Shown piece by piece: positions 2,412 to 25,257 of a stretch of 35,849 nt of DNA. The first letter of the stretch is position 1. Each line of letters opens with the position of its first letter. The position numbers and the translations under genes were made by a program. The stretch comes from Candidatus Aminicenantes bacterium (GTDB lineage: Bacteria; Acidobacteriota; Aminicenantia; Aminicenantales; Aminicenantaceae): positions 1-35,849 of the forward strand of contig DAOUYU010000001.1 of NCBI GenBank assembly GCA_030673995.1, read 5' to 3'. The notes below the pieces were generated by a model that made no database searches, was not told where the DNA came from, and was given only the letters and a program-made list of their open reading frames with translations.

Positions 2412-3332
2412 ATGTTGGAAGACTTCATTTCTGTACATGATCTAAGCCTTTACCAGTTCAGCAAAATACTGGACTTGACTCAGGAGATCAAGGACCACCC
2501 CCGGCGTTTCCAGAATAAACTCAAAAACAAAATCCTTGCAATGATCTTCGAAAAAGCCTCTTTACGCACCAGGATGACATTTGAAGTGGGAATGATCGAA
2601 CTCGGAGGGGAAGCTGTCTATTTGAGCCCATCGGATATCGCAATAGGCACAAGGGAAACCCCCTACGATGTAGGAAAGAACCTTGAGAGATGGGTGAGTG
2701 GCATAATGATCAGAACCTTTGCTCACAAGAATGTTATTGATCTAGCTGAAGCCTCTCGCATCCCTGTCATCAACGCTCTAACCGACCTCCTTCACCCCTG
2801 CCAGGCCATGGCAGATTTTTTCACTTTAAAAGAGAGGCGAGGAGACATGTTAAACCTCAAGCTGGCTTATGTAGGAGACGGTAATAATGTCTGTCACAGC
2901 CTTCTTTTTACTGCAGCAAAAGCCGGGAGCAAAATCAGTGTAGCGACACCTCCTGGATATGAACCCCAACCAGAGATTATCAAACAGGCAGAAGATGACG
3001 CTCAGGAAACGGGAGGAAGCTTCTTCTTCACAAATGACCCCGCTGATGCTGTCGAGGCTGCTGATGCCGTATATACTGATACTTGGGCTTCCATGGGACA
3101 GGAAAATGAAAAAGAAAAAAGAGCCGAAATTTTCGCTCCTTATCAAGTCAACAAGGAACTGATGGCAAAAGCCAAAAAAGACGCCCTTTTTATGCATTGT
3201 CTTCCGGCCCACCGGGGAGAAGAAGTCACGGATGATGTCATTGATTCTTCACAATCCATAGTTTACGATCAAGCTGAAAACAGACTTCATGTACAGAAGG
3301 TCATCCTGCTTTTACTCTTAGAGAAACAATAA
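2412..3332 (+). CDS. argF: Ornithine carbamoyltransferase
   Basis: 306 aa. Carbamoyl-phosphate motif S-L-R-T-R (a variant of STRTR), then HPCQ, DTWASMG and HCLPAHRGEE (the ornithine-binding DxxxSMG and HCLP motifs). Confidence 0.9.
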   Translation: MLEDFISVHDLSLYQFSKILDLTQEIKDHPRRFQNKLKNKILAMIFEKASLRTRMTFEVGMIELGGEAVYLSPSDIAIGTRETPYDVGKNLERWVSGIMIRTFAHKNVIDLAEASRIPVINALTDLLHPCQAMADFFTLKERRGDMLNLKLAYVGDGNNVCHSLLFTAAKAGSKISVATPPGYEPQPEIIKQAEDDAQETGGSFFFTNDPADAVEAADAVYTDTWASMGQENEKEKRAEIFAPYQVNKELMAKAKKDALFMHCLPAHRGEEVTDDVIDSSQSIVYDQAENRLHVQKVILLLLLEKQ

Positions 3333-3339
3333 AAAAACA

Positions 3340-5424
3340 ATGAGTGACAACAACGAAAATACAAAAATCACTGAAAAAGACCTTCTTTTTATCGAAAAAG
3401 AACTCTCTCAAACTAACAAAACTATCTCCTTCCACGAGTTGACAAAAAAACTGGCTTACAAAAAGACCTCCAGTCAACTGAGTAAAGAGGTCAAAATATA
3501 TGATCCCAGCTGCAAGTATGAAATCAACGACTTCATCTATAAAGAATATGACGAACCCTTGATGGTCAGCAGTAAAGGCGTAGAACTCTTTAAGGGAGCT
3601 GTTGTTTTAGAGGTCGTCAATAAAACCGCCTACGAAGATTACGGTTGTGAGATGTTGCAGGTTGATTATGCAGGAGGAGGATTTTTTCGGAAATACATGG
3701 ACTACATGAAGAAAGCAAAAGCTCAAGTTCTTCTCCCCTGCAATCTTGAAGGGAAAGCAGCTATCCCTGAAAAGATGGAAAAAAAAGAAGACCCACGGCT
3801 GACCGAGCTTCCTATGACAGATAGAGACTTAAAAGCCCTGGGAAAAAACATGAGAACAGCTTTACAAAAATCATCGAAATTCTTCAATTGGAACGAGTTT
3901 TGGCAACTCACAAAGAAACAAATAGAAATTAAGGATGAAAAAATAAAGGAGATTGAAAATCATATTCTAAAGGAGAAAGTATCGACAGCAACATCAGAGC
4001 TGGTGGATAAATTCTTTAACACGAAGAGTTCGGATGATCTTTTTGAGCTTTACTGTATGAGTTTAAACTTCATGCTCGAAAAAAAGCACAAGAAGGACTT
4101 TGTCTATGCTTGCCCTCTTGATTGGGGAAAATGGCATCTGAAGACAATACTCAATTCCTTGCCTAAGAATTTAGCCCTCTCGGCTCCAAAAGCCACGCTC
4201 CCTGTTTTCGCAGGCAAAGAAGAAGAGGAAACGATTCAAACCCAAGATTTCTCTCTAAAAATCTATCTCACCTGGAGAGAACTCCTTTCTGGGGGCATCC
4301 AAATTTCCAGAAGCCTCAATAAAGAGCTCTCTCCTTGTAGAGAATACATTTTTACCGATATTGAAGAAGGCAAGGATTACACTGTCTATCACTACCCACA
4401 GCACAGCTTTCTTCTGGGTTTAAAAGATTTCTACAAGAACAATAATGTTCCTCAGGGTGCAAGCCTGACATTAGAAAGGAAAGGAGTCAATCAATTCAGC
4501 TTCTGGTTGAAGAAATCAAAGAAAAAACTTTCTGCAATGAAAATGTCGTACAACCCTAAAGAAGATAAACTTTCTCTGGACGAAGAAGAACTCTTCACCT
4601 TCGCTATTCCCAATAAAATTATCCACATAGAGAGAGAAACCCTGAAAAAGCTCCTCTTGCTTTACCCAAAAAGAGATAATCTGGATCTCCATGAGTTTTT
4701 GGTTCTCATTTTTAAAAATTTTGGTATGGAGAACAAGAATTCTTCCCTTCATTTTCTCAGAGCTTATCATCTGATCGATGTTCTAAAATGCACTACCCAG
4801 GAAGAGGTTGAAAAAGCTCTACTCCGTTCAACAGAATTCTCACAATCCGAAAAATCCAAAGGTATCTTCTTTTACCATGAAATAATAAAAGTCGAAGAAG
4901 AAGAGGAGCCTGAAAAACCCGCTGTAATTATTCCTGAAATGCCTCCTGAGGAAGCAGTTGAAGAAGCCCCTCCTTTAGCCACAAGCACACAAGAAGCTCC
5001 TGTTGAGGAAATTCCACCGCCTGAAGCCAGGGAGGGAACGAAAGAAGTAAGAGTTGAAGTTCCTTTCGAACCCCTTGAAACAGAAATTGCAGGGAAAGAA
5101 AAAATTGAAGAGCCTCTGAAGCCAAAAAGAGAAAAGGTAACAAAGAAGCAAAGAGTAATGATGGAGGCCGAGAGAGTCCCTCGCGCAAGAAAAGGAGAGA
5201 AAAGATATATCGAAGAAAAAATTGAGCTCGAAGAATCCGAACAGGAGGCATTTTTAGCTGTTAAGGCCAAGGAGAAAAAAGAAGCTAAAGAAGAAAAAGC
5301 CACAGCACCCCCCGAGGAAAAAAAGAAAGAGTTTAAACGATATGTCTCCGAAGAACCCGCTTTTGGTCTCTTTGCTGAAAAGCTCAAAACAGCTTTAGAC
5401 AAAACAAAGAAAGAAAAGAAATAA
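3340..5424 (+). CDS. Hypothetical 694-aa protein with a roughly 180-aa Glu/Lys/Pro-rich low-complexity C-terminal tail
   Basis: Long uninterrupted ORF whose ATG follows 7 nt after the argF stop. No signal peptide or TM segment is visible and I recognise no family. The tail from about residue 515 is EEEEEPEKP...KKEAKEEKATAPPEEKKKE. Confidence 0.75.
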   Translation: MSDNNENTKITEKDLLFIEKELSQTNKTISFHELTKKLAYKKTSSQLSKEVKIYDPSCKYEINDFIYKEYDEPLMVSSKGVELFKGAVVLEVVNKTAYEDYGCEMLQVDYAGGGFFRKYMDYMKKAKAQVLLPCNLEGKAAIPEKMEKKEDPRLTELPMTDRDLKALGKNMRTALQKSSKFFNWNEFWQLTKKQIEIKDEKIKEIENHILKEKVSTATSELVDKFFNTKSSDDLFELYCMSLNFMLEKKHKKDFVYACPLDWGKWHLKTILNSLPKNLALSAPKATLPVFAGKEEEETIQTQDFSLKIYLTWRELLSGGIQISRSLNKELSPCREYIFTDIEEGKDYTVYHYPQHSFLLGLKDFYKNNNVPQGASLTLERKGVNQFSFWLKKSKKKLSAMKMSYNPKEDKLSLDEEELFTFAIPNKIIHIERETLKKLLLLYPKRDNLDLHEFLVLIFKNFGMENKNSSLHFLRAYHLIDVLKCTTQEEVEKALLRSTEFSQSEKSKGIFFYHEIIKVEEEEEPEKPAVIIPEMPPEEAVEEAPPLATSTQEAPVEEIPPPEAREGTKEVRVEVPFEPLETEIAGKEKIEEPLKPKREKVTKKQRVMMEAERVPRARKGEKRYIEEKIELEESEQEAFLAVKAKEKKEAKEEKATAPPEEKKKEFKRYVSEEPAFGLFAEKLKTALDKTKKEKK

Positions 5425-5429
5425 AACAG

Positions 5430-6515
5430 TCACAGAATTTCCCGCAACGAGCCTTTTCTCCGGGTCACCCCCACTTGATCCAGCAACTCAAGAAGAGGAA
5501 TGGCATACTTCCGGCTAAGTCCGGTCATCTTCTTAAAATCTGCAACCGTCAACTCTTTTTTCCCGAATTTTTTGATCCTGCTGATAATCTCATCCAACCA
5601 CCGGGAATGAAGGATCAATCCGTCTCTTCCCTGGACAATCTTTTTTCTCTCGATGAGCAGAGAAAGCATCCTGTCTAACATTTTTGAAGAGAGGCGAAAA
5701 CGCTTTTGAAGCTCCTCAAAAGAAAATGTACAAAATTCTCCTTTAAAGCACATACCCTCCAGGTCTTTTAAGATTTTTTCTTTTTCCGGGGTAAGAACAA
5801 CCATAAAATCAGAGAGCGAGAAGTTGTCTTCTAATGCCTTAATCTGGCCTGCACGCAATAGATGCTTCAGGGCCAATGACAAAATTCTAGAGTGAAGGTC
5901 AAATCTTTTTTTAACTCTCTCCATGGACACTCCCGGTTCCTCTGGATGCTTGTTATGAAAATGAACAAGAAAAGTCAGAATTTTCTGGCAGAGGAAATCA
6001 AGGCTTTCCTGGGAAATAAGAAAAAGAGGGGAAAAAGAGAGGATTCTTATTCTCCCCTCTTGCTCCAATTCCTGGGTCAAGCGAAGAAGGGACCTCTCGG
6101 TCAAAGAAGAAAAATTGATCGCTTCTCTCTCCTTTAAGCCCTTTATCCTCTTTTCCTGGATTAGGGCAAAAAGCATCAGCTTCTCATCTCCCTGTAGACA
6201 CTCAAGGAAGGCTATTCTTTTCTTTATTTTCTTTCTGCTTATTTTCTCCGAAAAGGGATTAAGAACAAGCCCTTCCCCTAAAAGGTTTTTCCCCTCCACT
6301 CCTTTGACCTCAAATTTATCTTTCCATCTTAACAGAAGGCACTTCTGGCAATGGATTCGGACAAAAGAAGGACCCGGCTTTTCCGTAAGAGCTGGCTCAT
6401 AAAAATAAAAAGAGGCAGGAATCTTTATCCCCTGGACAAGAAGCTGGGCCTGTAAGGGCTTTTCTCTGTCTACAGGAGAAATGTTGACAACCGCATCAAA
6501 ACAACCAGTCTTCAT
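5430..6515 (-). CDS. SelB C-terminal-only protein (beta-barrel domain III plus winged-helix domains; no GTPase domain)
   Basis: The C-terminal ...FKKMTGLSRKYAIPLLELLDQVGVTRRKGSLREIL matches the last SelB winged helix. The body is repeated helical WH-like modules. I place the start at the ATG at 6515, which overlaps the rnr stop as ATGA. The ORF-track extension to 6602 runs inside rnr in another frame. No G1-G4 GTPase motifs are present. Confidence 0.75.
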   Translation of the reverse strand: MKTGCFDAVVNISPVDREKPLQAQLLVQGIKIPASFYFYEPALTEKPGPSFVRIHCQKCLLLRWKDKFEVKGVEGKNLLGEGLVLNPFSEKISRKKIKKRIAFLECLQGDEKLMLFALIQEKRIKGLKEREAINFSSLTERSLLRLTQELEQEGRIRILSFSPLFLISQESLDFLCQKILTFLVHFHNKHPEEPGVSMERVKKRFDLHSRILSLALKHLLRAGQIKALEDNFSLSDFMVVLTPEKEKILKDLEGMCFKGEFCTFSFEELQKRFRLSSKMLDRMLSLLIERKKIVQGRDGLILHSRWLDEIISRIKKFGKKELTVADFKKMTGLSRKYAIPLLELLDQVGVTRRKGSLREIL

Positions 6516-8581
6516 CGAGCCTTTTTTTCCCTTTCTGCACTCAATATCAAGCTCAATCTTTTCAGGATAGGATCGACAGCAACACCAATCACTTTCACCC
6601 AATCCCCTAATTCAAATGTCCTCCCTGTTCTTCTACCGGTCAATGTTTTTTCAGATTTTTTAAAATAATAATCTCCATCCATATCTGAATAAGAGATAAT
6701 GCCACCAACAAAATAATCGGCAAGTTCGACAACCAAGCCAGCTCTGGTAATGTCTACAATTATCCCCTCAAATTCCTCTCCGAGCATTCTCTTCAGGAGG
6801 CGAAATATCCTCCATTCCATGAGATCTTTTTCTGCCACCCCTGCATTTCGTTCCTGCTGAGAACAGTGAAGAGCCAACGAAGAAAGAGCGGTCATCTTCA
6901 CTTTTTCTTGTCTGAGAACTGTCTTTAAAATCCGATGGACAGCCAGATCAGGATAGCGTCTGATAGGTGAGGTAAAATGAGTATATTCCTTTTTAGCAAG
7001 GCCGTAATGTCCCTCGTCCTCTTCAGAATAAACGGCTAATTTCAAGGATTTGAGAACCTGCAGATTGATAAATTTTTCCTCCGGCTTCCCCTCAAACTCC
7101 TTCAGAACATACTGCAGATCCCTCGAGTCGACCTTCTTTCCTGAGGGAAGGGAAAGGCCAAAATGAGACAGAATCTCTCTCAGCCTCTCCAGATCCTTTA
7201 AGGCCGGCCGCGGATGGATCCTGCGTATCAATGGAACATGTTTTTGGCTTAAAAATAAGGACACTGCCTCATTGGCTACAACCATGTATTCTTCAATAAC
7301 CCGGTGAGCCTCATTACGCTCAAAAGGCACGACCGAGTGGAGCCTCCCTTCCTTATATACGAGCTCCGGCTCCAGAATGTCAAAATCCAGACTTCCTTGT
7401 TTCACTCTTCTTCTTCTTAATATACGAGCCAGGTCCTCCATCATCAACAAAGCCGAAACTAAATGAGAATACCTTCTTCTCTCTCCCTTATCCCCCTCGA
7501 ATATTTTGTAAACAGAATGATACGTCATCCTCTCTGCTGTCCGGATCAAAGAGGGGTGAAATTCAGTCTTCAAAACCTCTCCGTCCCCGTCTATTTCAAG
7601 TAACACCGAAACGGTTAACCTATCCTCTTTAGGTCTAAGGCTGCATATATGATTGGAAAGCTTCTCCGGCAACATGGGAAGGGTAAGTTCAGGAAAATAA
7701 ACGCTCGTTCCTCTCTCAAAGGCCTCGCGGTCCAGGAAAGAGCCGGGCTTGACATAGTGGGAGACATCAGCAATGTGGACGCCAAGAAGAAAATGTCCAC
7801 TCTCAAGCATTTTTATGCTCACCGCATCATCAAAGTCTTGAGCACTTTCACCATCAATGGTCACAGTCATCCAGTTGCGATAATCTACTCTTTCTTTTTT
7901 ATCCTCCAAACAGATTTTAGAGGTGTACTTTTCAGCCTCTGTTAAAGCTTCTTTTGAGAAAAAAGAGGCTAAATCGTATCTCTGGATGATAACCCGTGTG
8001 TCGACTCCAGGATCATCAGGCATACCCAGAACTTCTTTTAGATGCATCGAATTCCTGTCAACCTCCACAATCATTCCGGGAAGGGGCGAAAGATTCTTTG
8101 TGGAGGCTAGCGGAATCTCTTCCGAGGAAGGGGAGTCGAAGGGGAGAAAAAAGGGTTTTCCCCATCGTTCCTTATAAAGACCAACTCTTCTTCTTTTTCC
8201 CCTTTTTACTATCCTGACCACCCGTCCTTCGGGCTTTCCCTTTTTCCCGCGCTCCATATAGAGGACCTCAACAACATCTCCCTGGAGAGCCCCTCCGGAG
8301 TAACGGCCAGGAATAAAGATGTCTCCCGTAGAATCTCCTTCAGGAGTGACAAATCCGTATCCCCTGAGAGAGGCGACAAGTCTTCCTTTAACCAGATTAG
8401 ACTTAGCAGGGATGAGATACCGTCTTTTCAATCTTAGAATCACTCCCTGACTTTCCAGCCGTCTCAGGCTCTTTTTCAGCGCCTGTCTTTCCCTGGGTGA
8501 GATGCGAAGCTGCAGGGTAATTCTCTGGAAACTCAAACCTTCCCTCTTTTTTTTCAACAGAGATATGACTTTGTTATCCAT
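6512..8581 (-). CDS. rnr: Ribonuclease R (RNase II/VacB family 3'-5' exoribonuclease)
   Basis: 689 aa. It has an N-terminal HTH/cold-shock-like region, an RNB domain with the HFTSPIRRYPDL signature, and a C-terminal S1 domain followed by a short basic tail. Confidence 0.92.
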   Translation of the reverse strand: MDNKVISLLKKKREGLSFQRITLQLRISPRERQALKKSLRRLESQGVILRLKRRYLIPAKSNLVKGRLVASLRGYGFVTPEGDSTGDIFIPGRYSGGALQGDVVEVLYMERGKKGKPEGRVVRIVKRGKRRRVGLYKERWGKPFFLPFDSPSSEEIPLASTKNLSPLPGMIVEVDRNSMHLKEVLGMPDDPGVDTRVIIQRYDLASFFSKEALTEAEKYTSKICLEDKKERVDYRNWMTVTIDGESAQDFDDAVSIKMLESGHFLLGVHIADVSHYVKPGSFLDREAFERGTSVYFPELTLPMLPEKLSNHICSLRPKEDRLTVSVLLEIDGDGEVLKTEFHPSLIRTAERMTYHSVYKIFEGDKGERRRYSHLVSALLMMEDLARILRRRRVKQGSLDFDILEPELVYKEGRLHSVVPFERNEAHRVIEEYMVVANEAVSLFLSQKHVPLIRRIHPRPALKDLERLREILSHFGLSLPSGKKVDSRDLQYVLKEFEGKPEEKFINLQVLKSLKLAVYSEEDEGHYGLAKKEYTHFTSPIRRYPDLAVHRILKTVLRQEKVKMTALSSLALHCSQQERNAGVAEKDLMEWRIFRLLKRMLGEEFEGIIVDITRAGLVVELADYFVGGIISYSDMDGDYYFKKSEKTLTGRRTGRTFELGDWVKVIGVAVDPILKRLSLILSAEREKKAR

Positions 8582-8583
8582 TT

Positions 8584-9285
8584 CTAGTAATAATAGAGAG
8601 AAATGTATGGAACTCTATATTTTTCCCTTAAAAATTTTACTGCCTTTATTTTGAAAATCCTTGAAAATTCCTCTTTATCCTTGAGTTCAAATTCTGCCAA
8701 AACCTCTCCTTTGATCTTTTCTTTCTCCTCGTCTGGAGTGTTCATGAAGAGAAGCTCCTCAATATCCTCCTCGATTCGTTCAAGCTCCTCTTCGTCAAGT
8801 CGAGTTTGAGACAGTATTTTCTTAGCTCGAGAAAACATTCCCTTCAAGTAGCCTATCGGAAAAGGGATCGTCTCTAAAAACCTTTTGACCTCTGCCTTTG
8901 CTCGTATTCTTTTCTCATCTCTCTCGACTCCCCTCCTTTTCTGCCCAACCTTTCTTTCTCTAGCCTGTTCAAAAGCCCTTAAAACCTGAAAATCACAGAA
9001 GCCAAGAGATTGGATTCTGGCCTTTCTTCCGGATTTTCTCCTGTAATTGGAAAAGGCGCTCTTCATGCCTTCCAAAACGATATAAAGAGGAATTTCCATT
9101 CTCTCCCATTTTGCAATGAGATCCTGCTCTCTTGAAGAAAGGAAGAAAGGAGCCCCACGTTCCATGAAGAAACGGCGGGCAATGGATTGGTAATACCTGG
9201 GATTCTCTATAATTATCTTTTCCTTATAAATAAGTCGGTTCTTGAATTTTGACACAAAAATTGTTGGGAGTGAAATGAATGTCAA
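8584..9285 (-). CDS. Hypothetical protein with a possible DnaD/DnaB_2-like helical domain and a charged C-terminal half
   Basis: 233-aa ORF with a TTG start that overlaps the coaX stop by 4 nt. An alternative ATG lies at 9165. The segment GAPFFLSSREQDLIAKWERMEIPLYIVLEGMKSAF loosely resembles the replication-organiser DnaB_2 motif. That similarity is weak and from memory only. Confidence 0.5.
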   Translation of the reverse strand: MTFISLPTIFVSKFKNRLIYKEKIIIENPRYYQSIARRFFMERGAPFFLSSREQDLIAKWERMEIPLYIVLEGMKSAFSNYRRKSGRKARIQSLGFCDFQVLRAFEQARERKVGQKRRGVERDEKRIRAKAEVKRFLETIPFPIGYLKGMFSRAKKILSQTRLDEEELERIEEDIEELLFMNTPDEEKEKIKGEVLAEFELKDKEEFSRIFKIKAVKFLREKYRVPYISLYYY

Positions 9286-10064
9286 GATTCAGGAACCAAT
9301 CCCATTTTTCTTTCATGAAGAATCCTCAATCCTTCCAAGACAAGATGGGGCTCTATATGGTCTATGGGCTCGATCTCATGGCTGATTTGGGGAGCAAAGC
9401 TTCCGGTAGATACGACGCTGGCTTCTTCTCCTAATTCTCTTTTTATCTCTTCAATGATATTGGAAATGAGGCCAATATAGCCAAAATAGAGGCCAGACTG
9501 CATGCTGGCTACAGTCGTACGCCCTATGGCTCTTTTTGGTTTCTTTATTTCAATACGGGGCAATTTGGCTGTTTTGAGGTAAAGAGCTTCGGCTGCAATC
9601 TGAATTCCTGGAGCGATAGCCCCGCCAAGGTACTCTCCTTTAGAAGAAACGGCATCAAAAGTAGTCGCTGTCCCGAAATCAACCACAATGATCGCTCCCC
9701 CCCATTTCTCGTAGGCTGCAACACTAGCGACTACTCTATCCGCTCCAACCTCAAGCGGATTTTCATAGAGAATAGCCATCCCTGTCTTTAGCCCGGGCCC
9801 AACAACAACAGACTTAATCCGAAACAGGCTCAGGCTTAAATCTTGAAAAACCGGTGTCAGCGGGGGAACGACACTGCAGAAATAAACGGATTTTATTTTC
9901 TCTACTTCAATCTTTGATAGAGACAGGAGGTTTAAAAGAGTTGCACTATACTCATCACAAGTTTTGTCCCCTTCGGTCCTGATCTTCCAGTGTTTGACCA
10001 GTCTCTTCGCTTCAAATATTCCAATTGCAATATTAGTATTACCTATATCTATTGCTAACAGCAT
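9282..10064 (-). CDS. coaX: Type III pantothenate kinase
   Basis: MLLAIDIGNTNIAIGIF N-terminus (ASKHA fold) and later DFGTATTFD. I prefer the ATG at 10064, which is preceded by AAGGAGG 6 nt upstream, over the GTG at 10085 used by the ORF track. Confidence 0.9.
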   Translation of the reverse strand: MLLAIDIGNTNIAIGIFEAKRLVKHWKIRTEGDKTCDEYSATLLNLLSLSKIEVEKIKSVYFCSVVPPLTPVFQDLSLSLFRIKSVVVGPGLKTGMAILYENPLEVGADRVVASVAAYEKWGGAIIVVDFGTATTFDAVSSKGEYLGGAIAPGIQIAAEALYLKTAKLPRIEIKKPKRAIGRTTVASMQSGLYFGYIGLISNIIEEIKRELGEEASVVSTGSFAPQISHEIEPIDHIEPHLVLEGLRILHERKMGLVPES

Positions 10065-10077
10065 GTTTTGCCTCCTT

Positions 10078-10824
10078 TTATTCACGCTTCGTTGTCTTTA
10101 TCTCTGCTGAAAAAAAAGTTCTCTTCTCGCCTTGACTTTCCAGGATCAACCCGCCCTGAGGATCAATCCCCTTATAAATGCCTGTCATTTCCCCTTTTTC
10201 CGTAATCAAAGTTGTCTCTTCTTCAAGGGACAAGGCAGAATTCTGCTGGAAAACACGGACAATCGCCCTTCCTTCACCATCTCTAAACAGACTATACCAA
10301 TGATTCAATGCACGCCAGAGGTTTTGAAGAAGAAGATCTTCACTCACCTTCCTTTTTGTAATGAGGGTCAGGGAAGTTGCCTGATGGCGAATTTCGTCCG
10401 GAAAATCGTCTTTCCCGTGGTCTACATTCAGGCCTATCCCGAGAATGACAAAATTAACTCTGTTCCCCAAAAAACCACTCTCGCAGAGTATCCCTCCAAG
10501 TTTTTCCTTTCCCCAGATTATATCATTGGGCCATTTCAGCTTGGTTCTAATGTCAAGCGTGCTAAAAATGGCTTCATTCACTGCCAATCCCGCCATAAGT
10601 GGAAGAAGGGAAATATTAGGGCGGGATGGATGGAGAATAACGGAAAGATAAATACCCTTTTCCCTGGCAGAGTACCAGCTCCTTCCCCTTGTCCCTTTCC
10701 CTCTGGTCTGCTCTTCCGAAATAATAACCGTTCCCTCTTTTCCTCCGGCCATAGCCAATTCTTTCGCTGCATCGTTGGTAGACGGGCAGCTTTTGATCCG
10801 GTGGATTTTCACCCCAATACGCAT
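10078..10824 (-). CDS. birA: Biotin--[acetyl-CoA-carboxylase] ligase (group I, no N-terminal HTH)
   Basis: 248 aa with STNDAAKE, the GRGTRGRSW biotin-binding loop and KWPNDI. Confidence 0.88.
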   Translation of the reverse strand: MRIGVKIHRIKSCPSTNDAAKELAMAGGKEGTVIISEEQTRGKGTRGRSWYSAREKGIYLSVILHPSRPNISLLPLMAGLAVNEAIFSTLDIRTKLKWPNDIIWGKEKLGGILCESGFLGNRVNFVILGIGLNVDHGKDDFPDEIRHQATSLTLITKRKVSEDLLLQNLWRALNHWYSLFRDGEGRAIVRVFQQNSALSLEEETTLITEKGEMTGIYKGIDPQGGLILESQGEKRTFFSAEIKTTKRE

Positions 10825-10858
10825 GGCCTTAAGATATGAACTAACCTGAATTATTCAT

Positions 10859-10977
10859 AAAAAATGCCGACACCTTCATTTTTCTTCAATAATATTAACA
10901 TTATAGCCCGTTTTTCAGTAAAATAAAGACTATCACTTTGTTTGTTGTAATATTTCTATCAAATGTCGGCATTTTTT
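10859..10977. repeat. Perfect 14-bp inverted repeat AAAAAATGCCGACA / TGTCGGCATTTTTT enclosing 91 nt of AT-rich DNA upstream of birA
   Basis: Arms at 10859-10872 and 10964-10977, read directly. On the minus strand the enclosed segment carries a TATAAT box (plus-strand ATTATA at 10900-10905), which could be the birA promoter -10. Confidence 0.6.
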
Positions 10978-10987
10978 ACCCTTCGGG

Positions 10988-11086
10988 CGAGCCGATCTCA
11001 CTGCATCGGCTTCGTTGCAGCCCATTCGCGGTAGTTCACTACAGCTTCATGGGCTGCGGCCTTGCCGCTACAGCAATCTCGACTCG
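10988..11086 (-). other. Long imperfect GC-rich hairpin beginning 22 nt downstream of the valS stop (possible 3' stabiliser, processing site or REP-like element)
   Basis: 38-nt arms at 10988-11025 and 11049-11086 with a 23-nt apical region that has its own GUAG/CUAC mini-stem. On the minus strand I count 26 Watson-Crick and 4 G-U pairs. On the plus strand those 4 become C-A mismatches, which favours a minus-strand RNA. Confidence 0.5.
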
Positions 11087-11107
11087 TGAATGATCCAGGC
11101 TAAAAGT

Positions 11108-13762
11108 TCATCCCTTATCAATGAGGGAGAGAATATGCTTGAAGTTCTTTTCAAGCTTTGTTTTCTTGCTCAAAAGCTCTGAAAGCCTGCCTTTTGTCTC
11201 CTGGGTGATTTCTTTTGGAGCTCGTTTAAGGAAATTGGCATTCTTAATCCTTTTTTCTAATTTTTCGGTTTCAACCTTGATTTTTGAGAATTCCCTTTCA
11301 AGCCTCTGTTTCTCCTGCTGCACATCAAAGATCGCTTCCTCAACGGGGATTGCAATTTCCCAAGAACCAACAATCCCTTTTAAAAGCTTCTTTTGCTTCG
11401 GAAAACGATCTAAAATTTCAATATGGCGGATATTAGCCAGAGACTGAATATAAGCCTCATTTCGATGAATAAATTGCTTCTCCTTATCTTCAATTACCTT
11501 TACCCATAGCTCAATTTTTTGCTTGGGGGGAATACGGTTTTCCGCCCTAATGGTTCTGATCCCCACAACCGCCTCTTGAAGCAATCTCATGTCTGTTTCC
11601 GCACTTTCATCTTTTAATTCCCCTCTCACCTGAGGGAAAGAAGCTGTGACCAAAGACTTCCCGGACAAATGGGGAAGATGCTGCCAGATTTCCTCGGTAA
11701 TGAAGGGCATAAAAGGATGGAGAAATCTCAGGATCTGGTCTAAGGTATCAACCAGGACTGCCTCTGAAGTCTTGTTTCCTTCTTTAAGATGAAGTTTGAC
11801 CAGCTCAATATACCAATCACAGAATTCATGCCAGATAAAATGATAAATTTTATCGGCCGCCTCATAAAACTTATAGTTCTCTAGAGCAAGACTTAACTCT
11901 TCGACAATCTTGACCGTTCTGCTGCGGATCCACCTGTCAGCCAGGGTTAATTCCCTTTCTTTTTGGTGAAATGTTTCTCCCCCGATGCTCATCAAAACAA
12001 AGCGAGATGCATTCCAGATTTTATTGGCAAAAGCCCGATAACCCGTCATCCTCTCTTCCGAGAGTGATATATCCATGCCTGGAATGGCTAACGCAGCCAG
12101 AGTGAACCTTAATGCATCGGTGCCGTATTTATCAATCATTTCAAGAGGATCTATGACGTTTCCCTCCGATTTACTCATTTTCCGCCTTTTAAAATCCCTG
12201 ACCAGCCCGTTGATAAAAACGTGACGGAAAGGGATATCACCGGCAAACTTAAGCCCCATCATGATCATCCGTGCAACCCAGAAGAAAATGATATCAAATC
12301 CTGTAGCCATAAGGTCAGTCGGATAGAATGTCCTGAGATCCTCTGTATCTTCGGGCCAACCCATGGTTACAAAAGGCCACAGAGCAGAACTGAACCATGT
12401 ATCAAGGACATCTTCTTCCTGAACGAGGTCGGAACTCTGGCATTTTTCACACTTTTTTGGCGCTTCCTCCGCAACAATGATATGCTCGCAAGCCTGGCAA
12501 TACCAGGCGGGAATCCTGTGCCCCCACCAGAGCTGACGTGATATGCACCAGTCGTGAATGTTGTACATCCATTCAAAATATGTTTTAGCCCACTTAGGGG
12601 GAATGAACTGGATCTCCCCTTCCTCAACCACTCTAATAGCTTCTTTGGTAAGAGTCTCCACACGAACAAACCACTGCCACGATAGATAGGGCTCGATAAC
12701 CGTATGACAGCGGTAGCAATGACCGACAGCATGCTGGTAATCTTCGCTTTTCTCCAGCAGGCCCATCTCTTTCAGCTTTGATAGCACTTTCTCCCGGCAC
12801 TCAAATCTGTCCAATCCTTTGAATTCCTCTCCTGCTTCGTTCGTCATCTTGCCTGATCCGTCGATAACGATAACCTGTGGGAGATTGTGCTTCTTCCCGA
12901 GTTCAAAGTCTACCGGATCATGAGCAGGCGTTACCTTGACCGCTCCGGTCCCGAATTCCACCTCCACCCTCTCATCTGTAATGACCGGAATCTTCCTGTT
13001 AACAAGGGGAAGAAGGACTGTCTGGCCCTGAATCTTGGCAAAACGCTCATCCTGGGGATGAACAGCGACCGCCGTATCGCCCAGCATTGTCTCAGGGCGG
13101 GTAGTGGCAACCGTTATATTCTCTTCTGAATCCAGGAGGGGATACTTGATGTAATACAGTTTGGCTTTCCTCTCCTTGTGTTCGATCTCGATATCTGAGA
13201 GAACTGTCCCGCAATGAGGGCAACGGTTAACCAGGTAGTAGTCCCGGTAGATGAGCCCTTCATGATAGAGATCAACAAAAACTTGTCTTACAGCCTTACA
13301 ATAATCCTCATCCAGGGTAAATCTTTCTCTCGTCCAGTCCAGAGAAGTCCCGAGTCTTTTCAGCTGATTAATGATGACACCACCATATTTTGCCTTCCAA
13401 TCCCAGGCAATCCTCAGGAACTCTTCGCGTCCGACATTCTCCCTGGTTAGCCCTTTCTCATCCAGACTCTGCTCGACCACGTTGTGGACAGCGATGCTCG
13501 CATGATCTGTCCCGGGAAGCCAGAGAGTATTATAGCCCTGCATCCTCCGCCACCGAACAATGATATCGGGCAAGGTAAAACACAGGGCATGACCTATATG
13601 AAGAGAACCCGTGACATTGGGAGGAGGAAGGACCATAGAAAATTTTTTCTTCGAAGACGTAACCTGGGGTGTGAACAGGCCTTCCTCGATCCAGAAACGG
13701 GACCATTTTTCCTCAACAGGCTCAGGGCTGTATGCTTTTTCCAGAATGTGTCTCTTCTTCAT
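11108..13762 (-). CDS. valS: Valine--tRNA ligase
   Basis: 884 aa with PPNVTGSLHIGHAL (HIGH motif), KMSKSEGN (KMSKS motif) and a C-terminal coiled coil. Confidence 0.95.
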   Translation of the reverse strand: MKKRHILEKAYSPEPVEEKWSRFWIEEGLFTPQVTSSKKKFSMVLPPPNVTGSLHIGHALCFTLPDIIVRWRRMQGYNTLWLPGTDHASIAVHNVVEQSLDEKGLTRENVGREEFLRIAWDWKAKYGGVIINQLKRLGTSLDWTRERFTLDEDYCKAVRQVFVDLYHEGLIYRDYYLVNRCPHCGTVLSDIEIEHKERKAKLYYIKYPLLDSEENITVATTRPETMLGDTAVAVHPQDERFAKIQGQTVLLPLVNRKIPVITDERVEVEFGTGAVKVTPAHDPVDFELGKKHNLPQVIVIDGSGKMTNEAGEEFKGLDRFECREKVLSKLKEMGLLEKSEDYQHAVGHCYRCHTVIEPYLSWQWFVRVETLTKEAIRVVEEGEIQFIPPKWAKTYFEWMYNIHDWCISRQLWWGHRIPAWYCQACEHIIVAEEAPKKCEKCQSSDLVQEEDVLDTWFSSALWPFVTMGWPEDTEDLRTFYPTDLMATGFDIIFFWVARMIMMGLKFAGDIPFRHVFINGLVRDFKRRKMSKSEGNVIDPLEMIDKYGTDALRFTLAALAIPGMDISLSEERMTGYRAFANKIWNASRFVLMSIGGETFHQKERELTLADRWIRSRTVKIVEELSLALENYKFYEAADKIYHFIWHEFCDWYIELVKLHLKEGNKTSEAVLVDTLDQILRFLHPFMPFITEEIWQHLPHLSGKSLVTASFPQVRGELKDESAETDMRLLQEAVVGIRTIRAENRIPPKQKIELWVKVIEDKEKQFIHRNEAYIQSLANIRHIEILDRFPKQKKLLKGIVGSWEIAIPVEEAIFDVQQEKQRLEREFSKIKVETEKLEKRIKNANFLKRAPKEITQETKGRLSELLSKKTKLEKNFKHILSLIDKG

Positions 13763-13813
13763 CGTCTGACCCCTAATAGTGTAGCAATTTGCGTGTGATT
13801 TTTCTTTATTTTT

Positions 13814-16800
13814 CTAATATTCAATAAAAACAGAATCTTCCCCTAATAAACCTTCTATTTTCCTCGATAAATCTTCGGAAAACAGTAGCCCCTGGACATC
13901 CCTGGCCTGAACAACTATCCGATAGGAAGGAGGAATCTCAAGCTCAAAAAACACAGGGCTATCTCCTCGATTTTGTTCCAGCATGTCTTTGAGTTCCTCA
14001 AATACAGACTCCTCTATGCCGGGAAGAAATATCCTCAGGATCACTCTTTTAACCTGATTCCGAAAAGCATCAGGCAAAGGCATAATCTGGAGAAGATGAA
14101 TCCTTCTGTTTTCTCCCTCTCCTAAAAACTTACCTTTAACCCAGACAAGATGATCCTGCCTGAGGTGGTCATAATATCTCTTATAGTTATCTGGAAAAAC
14201 CACAACCTCTATTCGTCCGCTCATGTCTTCTAAAATAAAAGTGGCCATTCTCTCATCTTTTTTAGTCTTAATGGATTTAATGGAGGAAATGATTCCTGCA
14301 ATGTGTATCTCACTTCCAAAATCCTTTTCGTCATCCAATTGATTTATGGAGTGGGAAACAAGCGTCTCCAACCGCTTCCCGAATTCGGCCAGTGGGTGTC
14401 CTGTGATATAGAATCCCAGGGCATCTTTCTCATAAGAAAGAGAAAGAGACTCATCCCATTCCGGCATCTGCTTCACTTCAGGAGGGATAGGGGGAGGTTC
14501 GATCTGGCTTTTTCCAAAGAGGAGACTCTGTTTCGAGGATTTGGCTCTTTGAATTTCATGGCCATATTCGATCATCTCATCTATCAGGTGAAACAGCTGG
14601 GACCTTTGCCACCCTAAGGAATCAAAGGCCCCTGCCTTTATTAAGCTCTCGATCACCTTTCGATTGACTGTTTTTGGATCAATCTCTTCAAAGATCTCAA
14701 AGGGCGAAGTAAACTTCCCTCTCTTATTCCTTGCTTGAATGAGTGAGCGAACCGCTCCTTCTCCGACATTCTTAATGGCTGACAAACCGAAGCGTATAGC
14801 TTCCTTTACGACCGTGAAATTGAAATCGCTCTCATTAATGTCAGGGGGAAGAACTTTGATTCCCATCTCTTTACATTCATTGATGTATTTAACGACTTGA
14901 GAAGTGACTCCTCTCTCAGCCTCAGAAGTCAAGAGCGCTGCCAGAAAATAATCTGGATAATGAGCCTTGAGATACGCTGTGCGGTAAGCCAAACAAGCAT
15001 AAGCAGCGCTATGGGACTTATTGAATCCGTAGCCGGCAAAATATTTTATCTGATCGAAGATTTTTTTTGCTTTAGCCTGACTCAAGCCTTTCTTTTTCGC
15101 TCCCTGAATAAATCTCTGCATTTGGCCTTTCATTATTGCCGTTTCTTTTTTACCCATCGCCTTCCGCAAGATATCGGCTTCAGCCATGGAAAATCCTGCC
15201 AGATCGGTCGCGATCCTCATCACCTGCTCCTGGTAAACAATGAGACCCTGAGTCTCTTTCAGGGCTGGTTCCAGCTCAGGGCATTCATAGCTAATTTTTT
15301 CCGGGTGGTTTTTGCGTTTTATAAATTCATCCGTCATCCCGCTTTTTAAGGGGCCAGGCCGGTAAAGAGCGTTCAGTGCAATCAGATCACGGAAGCTTTC
15401 GGGCTTAAAATTCCTGAGCAGATCCTTCATTCCGTGGCTTTCAAACTGAAAAACGCCATCTGTATTGCCTGTTTTGAAGACCTCAAAAGTTTTCTCATCA
15501 TCCAATGCAATATTCTTCAGATCTATTTTTTGACCTGTTTTTTTTTCGACAAGTTCAACTGTATCTTTAATAACGGTCAGGTTGCGAAGCCCGAGCAAGT
15601 CCATCTTGAGCAGACCAATAGCTTCAATATCCTGCATCGGAAATTGGGTCGTAATCTCCCCCTTTACTGATTGGTACAAGGGCATAAATTCTACCAATAG
15701 TTTTGGTGCAATTACGATCCCCGCCGCATGAATGGATGGATGCCGAACCTGTCCCTCTAATTTCTGAGCGACGGACAGGAGGTGGGCGATTTTGGTATCC
15801 TTATCTCTCAGCTCTTTTAACTGGGGGACCTCCTTCAGCGCACCTTGGATCGTCGCCTCTGGGCCGAAAGGAGGAATCATCTTTGCAATTTTGTCCACTT
15901 CCGGGAGTGGAACTTCAAGAGCTCTTCCCACATCCCTAACTGCCTGGCGGGCAGCCATCGTACCAAAGGTAATGATCTGGCTTACATTTTCCTGCCCTCC
16001 ATACTTCTTTTTGACATAAGCAAGAACCTCATCGCGCCTTCTTCCGCAGAAATCGATATCAATATCCGGGAGGCTTATTCGCTCTGGATTGAGAAACCTC
16101 TCAAAGAGAAGATCATATTCCATAGGATCAATATCGGTAATCCCCAAACTGTAGGAAAGCAGGCTGCCTGCAGCAGACCCTCTCCCGGGGCCAACAGGTA
16201 TGTTGTTGTTTTTGGCCATCTGAATGAGGTCCCAGACAATCAAAAAATATCCTTCAAATCCCATCTCCTTAACGAGCTTGACCTCCCTCTCCAATCTCTT
16301 TTCGTATTCCTCAATAAGAGAGGGCAGCTCATCCTTCCCTTTTTTCTTGGCGATGACCTGAATCTGATTCTGGAAACCTTCCTTGACAACTTGATCAAAA
16401 TATTCCCCTAAAGAGAATCCCTCCGGCGCCTTAAATTGCGGCAAGGAATATCCTGAAGAGGGAAAATCAAAATTGCACTGCGCGGCAATTTTGGCAGTAT
16501 TCTGGATGGCTTCAGGGATTTCTGCAAAGAGGTCTATCATTTCTGCACTCGATTTAAAATAAAACTCGTTTGTGCTGAAGCGAATTCTATCCTGATCTGC
16601 TACCTTCTTGTTTGTCTGGATGCAAAGGAGGATATCATGGCTCTCAGAATCATCTTTAGAGAGGTAATGAACATCGTTTGTGGCCACCAGCGGGAGTTTG
16701 AGTTTTCGAGCGAGGCGTATCAGTAAAGGATTGTTTTTTTTCTGTTCCTCCAGGCCGTGATCTTGGACCTCAATGTAAAAATCACCCTTTGAAAACAAAG

Positions 16801-24902: not shown

Positions 24903-25185
24903 AGCAGTCCTCCTTTAATTGAAAAGAATAAGGTTATTGAGTGATTCCACCTTTCTCCAATTTAAGCATAAATGATTGTTTTTAACAACAAAAAAAATCC
25001 CTTAACATTCATGTGGTTAAACTTGCAGCAACCAAATTCCCTCTATTTCCAAAACGATCTAAACGCCCTGGATTTTTTTCTCTTTTGGCAAATAAGCATT
25101 CAATAATCCAGGTTATATATTTTAGTCGATTAAGTTCACCCTTTACGGAAAGTTGACGAAGTCAACCGGCCGAGATGTTTGAAGG

Positions 25186-25236
25186 AAAAAAGGGGACAGG
25201 CAACTTTTTAATAAAAAGTAGCCTGTCCCCTTTTTT
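25186..25236 (-). terminator. Bidirectional intrinsic terminator-like palindrome
   Basis: A6-GGGGACAGGCAACTTTTTA-A-TAAAAAGTAGCCTGTCCCC-T6 forms a 19-bp stem with one A-A mismatch and U-tracts on both strands. On the minus strand it would terminate transcripts coming from etfBA after the repeat array. A second GTCCCCTTTTTT half-site lies at 25240-25251. Confidence 0.65.
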
Positions 25237-25257
25237 CTTGTCCCCTTTTTTCTCAGG

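Follow-up and report, generated by a model that had tools for sequence, protein, structure and literature searches.

SelB is the textbook translation factor that reads mRNA structure, and its domains I and II bind GTP and Sec-tRNA. The DNA analyzed here, a 35,849-nucleotide stretch from a Candidatus Aminicenantes MAG (the window), carries a gene, here called selBC, whose product resembles the C-terminal part of this factor and which overlaps rnr, the gene for RNase R. What does such a partial protein do in a genome where no selenocysteine genes are found? It could be debris, one half of a divided SelB, a partner of the exoribonuclease, a DNA-binding regulator, or an RNA-binding factor in its own right.

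Gene structure and operon context

The selBC frame comprises 361 codons, and its product begins MKTGCFDA (Table 1). The ATG (6515-6513) and the TGA of rnr (6514-6512) share the letters ATGA. At the other end, a 694-aa gene converges on selBC and ends at 5424, which leaves its stop 5 nt away from that of selBC (5432-5430). A TTG at 6602, in frame upstream of the ATG, falls within rnr, and the start at the MKT position is common to all selBC orthologues. A frameshift or assembly error concealing a GTPase domain was considered and ruled out, given the complete 689-aa RNase R upstream and orthologues that all begin at MKT. The preliminary description, made from the letters alone, had reported the 4-nt overlap, an upstream in-frame stretch that is the interior of rnr, the tightly packed birA-coaX-hyp-rnr string with selBC as its last gene, and the 5-nt distance between the convergent stops; all four agree with the sequence and the ORF coordinates. 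The birA-coaX-233-aa gene order is syntenic upstream in most related loci.

Two neighbors deserve mention. The 233-aa gene between coaX and rnr keeps its position in nearly all related loci, where its orthologues are about 210 aa long and share the N-terminal motif YFQxIARxFFxxRGAPFFLSSxELxxIxxWE. Its AlphaFold2 model is all-helical (pLDDT 88), its product has zero matches in Pfam, NCBIfam, PDB sequences, and Foldseek, and it directly precedes selBC in both genomes that lost rnr (see below). The product of the convergent gene has a Glu/Lys/Pro-rich tail and matched no Pfam or NCBIfam family; the gene adjoins argF in most related loci.

Table 1. Features of the selBC locus and of the compared loci (positions are those of the window unless a locus is named)
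Feature	Position	Strand	Basis
selBC, GTPase-less SelB descendant, 361 aa	5430-6515	-	ORF and translation, Pfam wings, AlphaFold2/Foldseek; orthologues 360-362 aa
Domain III beta-barrel (EF-Tu/SelB type), residues 1-90	6246-6515	-	Model strands 2-86; Foldseek to EF-Tu domain III, SelB 5LZB/4ZU9
N-C spacer helix and winged helix 1 (WH1), residues 91-168	6012-6245	-	Model helices 94-152, wing strands 156-168; aligned to 1LVA from residue 115
Winged helix 2 (WH2), residues 169-236	5808-6011	-	Pfam SelB-wing_2 at 181-227; model; 1LVA alignment
Winged helix 3 (WH3), residues 237-303	5607-5807	-	Model; matches to 1WSU, 2UWM, 2PLY
Winged helix 4 (WH4), residues 304-361, SelB signature TGLSRKYAIPLLELLDQVGVTRRKG	5433-5606	-	Pfam SelB-wing_3, 61.2 bits
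ATGA overlap, rnr stop/selBC start	6512-6515	-	Sequence
rnr, RNase R, 689 aa, upstream neighbor	6512-8581	-	Pfam RNB (E 8.6e-110), OB_RNB, CSD2, S1
Tight gene string upstream (233-aa gene, coaX, birA)	8584-10824	-	ORFs overlapping or <=2 nt apart
233-aa gene without family match	8584-9285	-	ORF list
coaX	9282-10085	-	ORF list
birA	10078-10824	-	ORF list
Convergent 694-aa gene	3340-5424	+	
rnr-(pgi)-full-length selB, locus L147	4262-8330		
rnr-(pgi)-full-length selB, locus L148	3841-7984		
rnr-(pgi)-full-length selB, locus L149	3896-8469		
rnr-(pgi)-full-length selB, locus L150	410-6612		
rnr-(pgi)-full-length selB, locus L151	810-9139		
889-aa frame, PGI domain joined to SelB-wing_3 C-terminus, locus L097 (genome G007, family f7)	5600-8269	+	
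Long selBC version, locus L098 (family f11)	8005-9414	-	

Domain content and predicted fold

Pfam searches of the selBC product recovered SelB-wing_3 (PF09107; 61.2 bits against a cut-off of 23.2, residues 319-358) and SelB-wing_2 (PF09106; 33.8 bits against a cut-off of 22.3, residues 181-227), both above threshold, and no GTP_EFTU domain. The selB equivalog TIGR00475 covers the product at model positions 306-575 of 581 only, and its score of 64.4 bits falls below the curated cut-off of 242.25 bits. By family criteria the protein thus belongs to the Pfam SelB-wing families and is not a SelB.

An AlphaFold2 model built with 25 orthologues as input (pLDDT 89.3) places a barrel in residues 1-86 and, after it, winged helices in residues 94-168, 169-234, 243-303, and 304-360. 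The top Foldseek matches in the PDB are all SelB: 1LVA ranks first, followed by 5LZB_z (ribosome-bound E. coli SelB of full length, aligned over 367 columns) and by A. aeolicus SelB (4ZU9), and the barrel by itself matches EF-Tu domain III. When the family profile was compared with PDB sequences, 1LVA (M. thermoacetica SelB 377-634) was matched with an E value of 3e-31 over a span from WH1 to WH4. Domain I and domain II, the latter with the Sec-binding pocket, are missing, and the product begins at the domain III barrel. Pfam, model, and Foldseek together bear out the earlier assignment of domain III plus four winged-helix modules without the GTPase half. In terms of the A. aeolicus SelB limits (PMC4605307), the product consists of D3, the N-C spacer, and WHD1-4, starting at about the D2/D3 boundary. 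In SelB itself, WHD3-4 (WH3 and WH4) jointly hold the SECIS hairpin and D3 touches the T and extra arms of tRNA-Sec (PMC4605307). The selBC product is basic (pI 9.65), and its WH4 has a pI of 10.3.

Linkage to rnr

The overlap with rnr had suggested a new functional pairing, and adjacency of the two genes is indeed conserved in relatives. Among the 77 order-level loci that have upstream sequence, rnr lies directly upstream on the same strand in 75; by a start-site heuristic the two genes overlap in 41 of these 75 (35 loci with a 4-nt and 6 with a 1-nt overlap), and they are no more than 35 nt apart in 62 of the 75. Co-expression of rnr and selBC in the MAG of the window is likely, because the genes overlap. 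A dedicated RNase R partner would use its winged helices to recognize either a hairpin or the site where mRNA enters the ribosome, and would recruit the exoribonuclease encoded on the same transcript, hold it back, or guide it. Besides the tight spacing, this explanation can draw on a linkage that persists in several families of the phylum while every other neighbor differs, and on the RNase R of the window, which ends about 30 residues past its S1 domain (...SLILSAEREKKAR) and so has a short tail only. E. coli RNase R carries a long Lys-rich C-terminal tail.

However, full-length selB has the same adjacency. In other Acidobacteriota families rnr is followed directly by a full-length selB with its P-loop present (genomes G165, G132, and G179), or by pgi and then a full-length selB (G133 and G151), and these loci share none of the remaining neighbors of the window (Table 1). 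Since the adjacency is found with full-length selB in those families, the rnr linkage predates the truncation, and since the short gene occupies the same place, it is the positional descendant of selB. The rnr-(pgi)-selB linkage seems old in the phylum. The linkage of the short gene is also loose in places: pgi is interposed between rnr and selBC in families f9, f11, and f12 and at loci L079 and L090; in family f7, where pgi precedes selBC, rnr is found on a different contig; and family f8 has neither rnr nor pgi near selBC.

Nor does the short gene depend on the presence of RNase R. Two order-level genomes (G121 and G122) have lost rnr precisely from the locus and encode no RNB domain anywhere, yet their selBC is intact at 361-362 aa. 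Another 8 of the 12 f8 genomes have the short gene and zero RNB proteins, so that at least 10 genomes hold it without an RNB-domain protein. Finally, no fusion of RNB and SelB-wing domains was found among proteins of 577-1837 aa; the chimeric 1050-aa query used in this search scored on its SelBC part and yielded only 23 full-length SelBs.

Collectively, these findings make a dedicated partnership with RNase R unlikely. A role with RNase R is possible where both proteins are present; it cannot be the general function. We take the rnr-selBC overlap to be most plausibly a holdover from an ancestor with the order rnr-(pgi)-selB, and it serves as a caution that a tight, overlapping gene pair can be an inherited arrangement and not evidence of a new functional partnership. 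Of the preliminary proposal of a stand-alone mRNA-hairpin-binding protein acting with RNase R, the stand-alone hairpin binder survives as the best reading, while the new partnership is unsupported.

An unusual arrangement was seen in one f7 genome, G007, in which one open frame of 889 aa encodes a phosphoglucose isomerase domain and, at its C-terminus, SelB-wing_3. The relatives of this genome have pgi and selBC as separate genes, and the frame may reflect either a true fusion or an error in sequencing.

Phylogenetic placement

Trees of the shared region united all canonical SelBs, including the class's own full-length copies, in one clade (support 100/99), with the stand-alone proteins all on the other side of the tree. 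The selBC product of the window falls within a 54-row clade of stand-alone proteins only (100/99), and it is 91% identical to the protein of locus L011. Stand-alone-sized matches from outside the class sit tightly beside full-length SelBs in the tree and were set aside as probable gene fragments.

The short clade is nested in no acidobacterial SelB group of the sequence tree. An AU test rejected the grouping of this clade with 11 labeled acidobacterial full-length SelBs (p 0.00016); as those 11 lack monophyly among unlabeled SelBs, the test carries little weight. As the tree leaves the short clade unplaced among acidobacterial SelBs, the origin in place is drawn from synteny alone.

Conservation and selection

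A large protein collection contained 940 homologues of the selBC product. Among the 120 homologues listed of these 940, nearly all are 360-362 aa long and come from Candidatus Aminicenantes metagenome bins. Orthologues carry the NCBI and JGI names "SelB C-terminal domain-containing protein," "hypothetical protein," and "selenocysteine-specific elongation factor" (JGI). In a sample of 121 genomes with the NCBI label Candidatus Aminicenantes, a class that we take to be the Aminicenantia of GTDB, the short gene is single-copy, present in 115, and uniformly about 360 aa long. Its dN/dS is about 0.11, close to the 0.086 of rnr at the same divergence (relatives about 60% identical), and 54 columns are invariant across 25 sequences with identities down to 53%. 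The gene is intact and maintained under purifying selection, not debris, and the decaying remnant that had been considered at first is rejected on these grounds.

The constraint is unevenly distributed along the protein. Within the family, conservation is highest in WH4 (mean top-residue frequency, 0.76), which keeps the canonical SelB motif as sRKYaIPLLExLD..T.R.G, and lowest in domain III (0.41), which is missing in several lineages, whose orthologues are 256-286 aa long. One consistent change in the signature is ELLD (Leu) in the short family for EyLD (Tyr) in canonical SelB, and with this Leu-for-Tyr change the specificity of the protein may differ from SECIS recognition. In family f11 the gene is longer, encoding 470-497 aa (loci L098, L099, and L100). 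The roughly 240 N-terminal residues of this version gave no Pfam or PDB-sequence match; it may represent a different stage of N-terminal remodeling.

Winged helices more often bind DNA. The tandem array could have been turned to the binding of double-stranded DNA, the usual ligand of winged-helix proteins, which would make the selBC product a sequence-specific DNA-binding regulator. The basic character of the product, weaker Foldseek matches to winged-helix arrays such as the DNA-bound TFIIIC tauB, and a weak Pfam eWH_GTF3C1 match (E 0.056) are in keeping with such a role. However, the strongest constraint lies on the SelB-specific RNA-binding motif of WH4, kept almost letter for letter, and the nearest relatives by sequence and fold are all SelB-RNA complexes, so that we regard a DNA-binding regulator as quite improbable.

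Independence from the selenocysteine trait

The preliminary description had seen no selA, selD, or tRNA-Sec in the window, and this holds for the whole MAG (1.55 Mb, 83% complete). The 83%-complete MAG likewise yielded no second SelB-wing_3 protein and no SelB-type GTPase half; the gene that matches "selB" best is that of EF-Tu, with rpsJ/rplC-like genes next to it downstream. Across the class, a full-length SelB above the family cut-off is encoded in 21 of the 121 genomes and selD in 22, namely, the 21 with full-length SelB and 1 with a broken copy, and selD usually adjoins the full-length selB. All 21 genomes with a complete SelB retain the short gene as well, as a distantly related second paralogue, which lies at the rnr locus in, for example, G103, G009, G015, G045, and G109. 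Conversely, SelB and selD are both missing from about 94 of the 115 genomes with the short gene, the window's MAG included. A sample of the phylum outside the class (Acidobacteriota in NCBI titles) gave essentially only full-length frames of about 620-830 aa. The short gene is kept independently of selenocysteine use.

This distribution bears on a possible role in selenocysteine decoding, in which the protein would act as a SECIS competitor or chaperone beside full-length SelB. In E. coli, the C-terminal part of SelB, when isolated, binds SECIS and inhibits read-through of UGA, and 21 genomes of the class have the short gene together with full-length SelB and selD; both points speak for a modulator of this kind. 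It cannot be the general function, however, when some four-fifths of the carriers counted above lack SelB and selD, and we consider it very improbable. A non-functional selB remnant, or one part of a SelB divided between two genes, with the GTPase at another site, might be read from the position at the ancestral selB locus, the missing N-terminal half, and the incompleteness of the MAG, but it is contradicted by the uniform length and purifying selection seen class-wide, by the 21 genomes that hold the short gene in addition to a complete SelB, and by the finding of no SelB-type G-domain gene in 100 mostly high-quality class genomes without full-length SelB, where the best matches are EF-Tu-sized frames of about 400 aa.

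RNA structure, promoter, and terminator scans

No SECIS-like or other structured RNA was detected at the rnr/selBC junction, which folds no better than shuffled sequence (z +0.64). Rfam searches of the window found nothing relevant at gathering thresholds or at E values up to 5, and promoters and terminators predicted in 3200-14000 occurred at chance level. Neither the junction fold nor Rfam thus pointed to a candidate target RNA for the selBC product. A weak G-U-rich hairpin followed by a T-run (5429-5448, minus strand) lies over the selBC stop and extends into the convergent gene at its 3' end. It could serve as a terminator, though sites of this kind are no commoner than in shuffled sequence.

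Elsewhere in the window, a near-perfect hairpin of about 26 bp (25183-25240) flanked by an A-run and T-runs lies between two minus-strand genes and has a folding z of -6.2. It looks like a strong bidirectional intrinsic terminator, and Rfam returned chance-level miRNA and sRNA matches only.

A proposed stand-alone RNA stem-loop binder

The reading that we favor, with a probability of roughly 0.6, is that the selBC product is a class-specific, Sec-independent, stand-alone RNA stem-loop binder that descended in place from an acidobacterial selB. In this scenario an acidobacterial selB would have lost domains I and II at its own locus, while domain III, the spacer, and the four winged helices stayed. 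The short gene would then have been maintained, single-copy and near-universal in the class, regardless of selenocysteine use. With WH1-WH2 as a rigid arm, its product would use WH3-WH4 to hold an RNA stem-loop in the way that SelB holds the apical loop of SECIS, and would act as a stand-alone post-transcriptional or ribosome-proximal RNA-binding factor.

RNA stem-loop binding via WH3-WH4, outside selenocysteine, is the most likely activity, because the most constrained part of the protein is the SelB hairpin-binding module while the tRNA- and GTPase-facing barrel drifts or is lost. This prediction is argued from the retention of the WH4 signature across the family. A bolder version of the proposal is that the SECIS-reading, 30S-docking arm of SelB was turned, class-wide and after Sec loss, into a free-standing reader of mRNA or ncRNA stem-loops that acts where mRNA enters the ribosome or on structured RNAs and, where rnr is present, hands RNAs to RNase R or shields them from it. 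We offer this version tentatively and judge it doubtful; if true, part of a translation factor would have found new use as a subunit in RNA surveillance or regulation.

The descent of a stem-loop binder from selB would mean that the RNA-reading half of SelB outlived both the GTPase and the Sec trait across a whole class of widespread, uncultured sediment and subsurface bacteria. The class thus offers a natural experiment in what the winged-helix arm can do alone, and the selBC product offers a small, well-folded candidate RNA-hairpin binder.

Comparison with known systems

The NCBI label "SelB C-terminal domain-containing protein," the same name as on the orthologues, records the domain match only, with no function, phyletic pattern, or paper attached. 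A full-text literature search with this phrase found no paper, and literature searches found none describing natural stand-alone SelB C-terminal proteins. Three findings are new here: selBC is tied to the rnr-(pgi)-selB locus of the ancestor, selD and full-length SelB co-occur exactly, and there are f8 genomes without an RNB protein.

The selBC product and canonical SelB share the domain III barrel, the N-C spacer, and the four winged helices in identical order, as well as the WH4 signature, and the full-length selB of some Acidobacteriota also shares the position downstream of rnr, with or without pgi. In contrast, canonical SelB has domain I (GTPase, with G1-G5 motifs) and domain II (the Sec pocket), both of which the selBC product lacks, and the product scores 64 bits against the 242-bit SelB family cut-off. 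The selBC gene occurs in genomes without selA, selD, or tRNA-Sec, unlike the Sec-decoding trait of SelB, and its family forms a clade of its own outside every sampled canonical SelB, with a domain III that is weakly conserved and sometimes lost.

A second comparison is with the laboratory-made C-terminal fragments of SelB (M. thermoacetica SelB 377-634, 1LVA; WH3-4, 1WSU), which are likewise GTPase-free winged-helix arrays. In solved complexes such fragments bind the SECIS hairpin alone (1WSU, 2UWM, and 2PLY; PMC4605307). They are engineered cuts of a working SelB, whereas selBC is a natural gene with its own start codon, selected in Sec-free organisms, and its product also keeps domain III, unlike the fragments. 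Among the systems compared, it is these SECIS-binding fragments that the selBC product would probably work most like, with RNA binding as the predicted activity.
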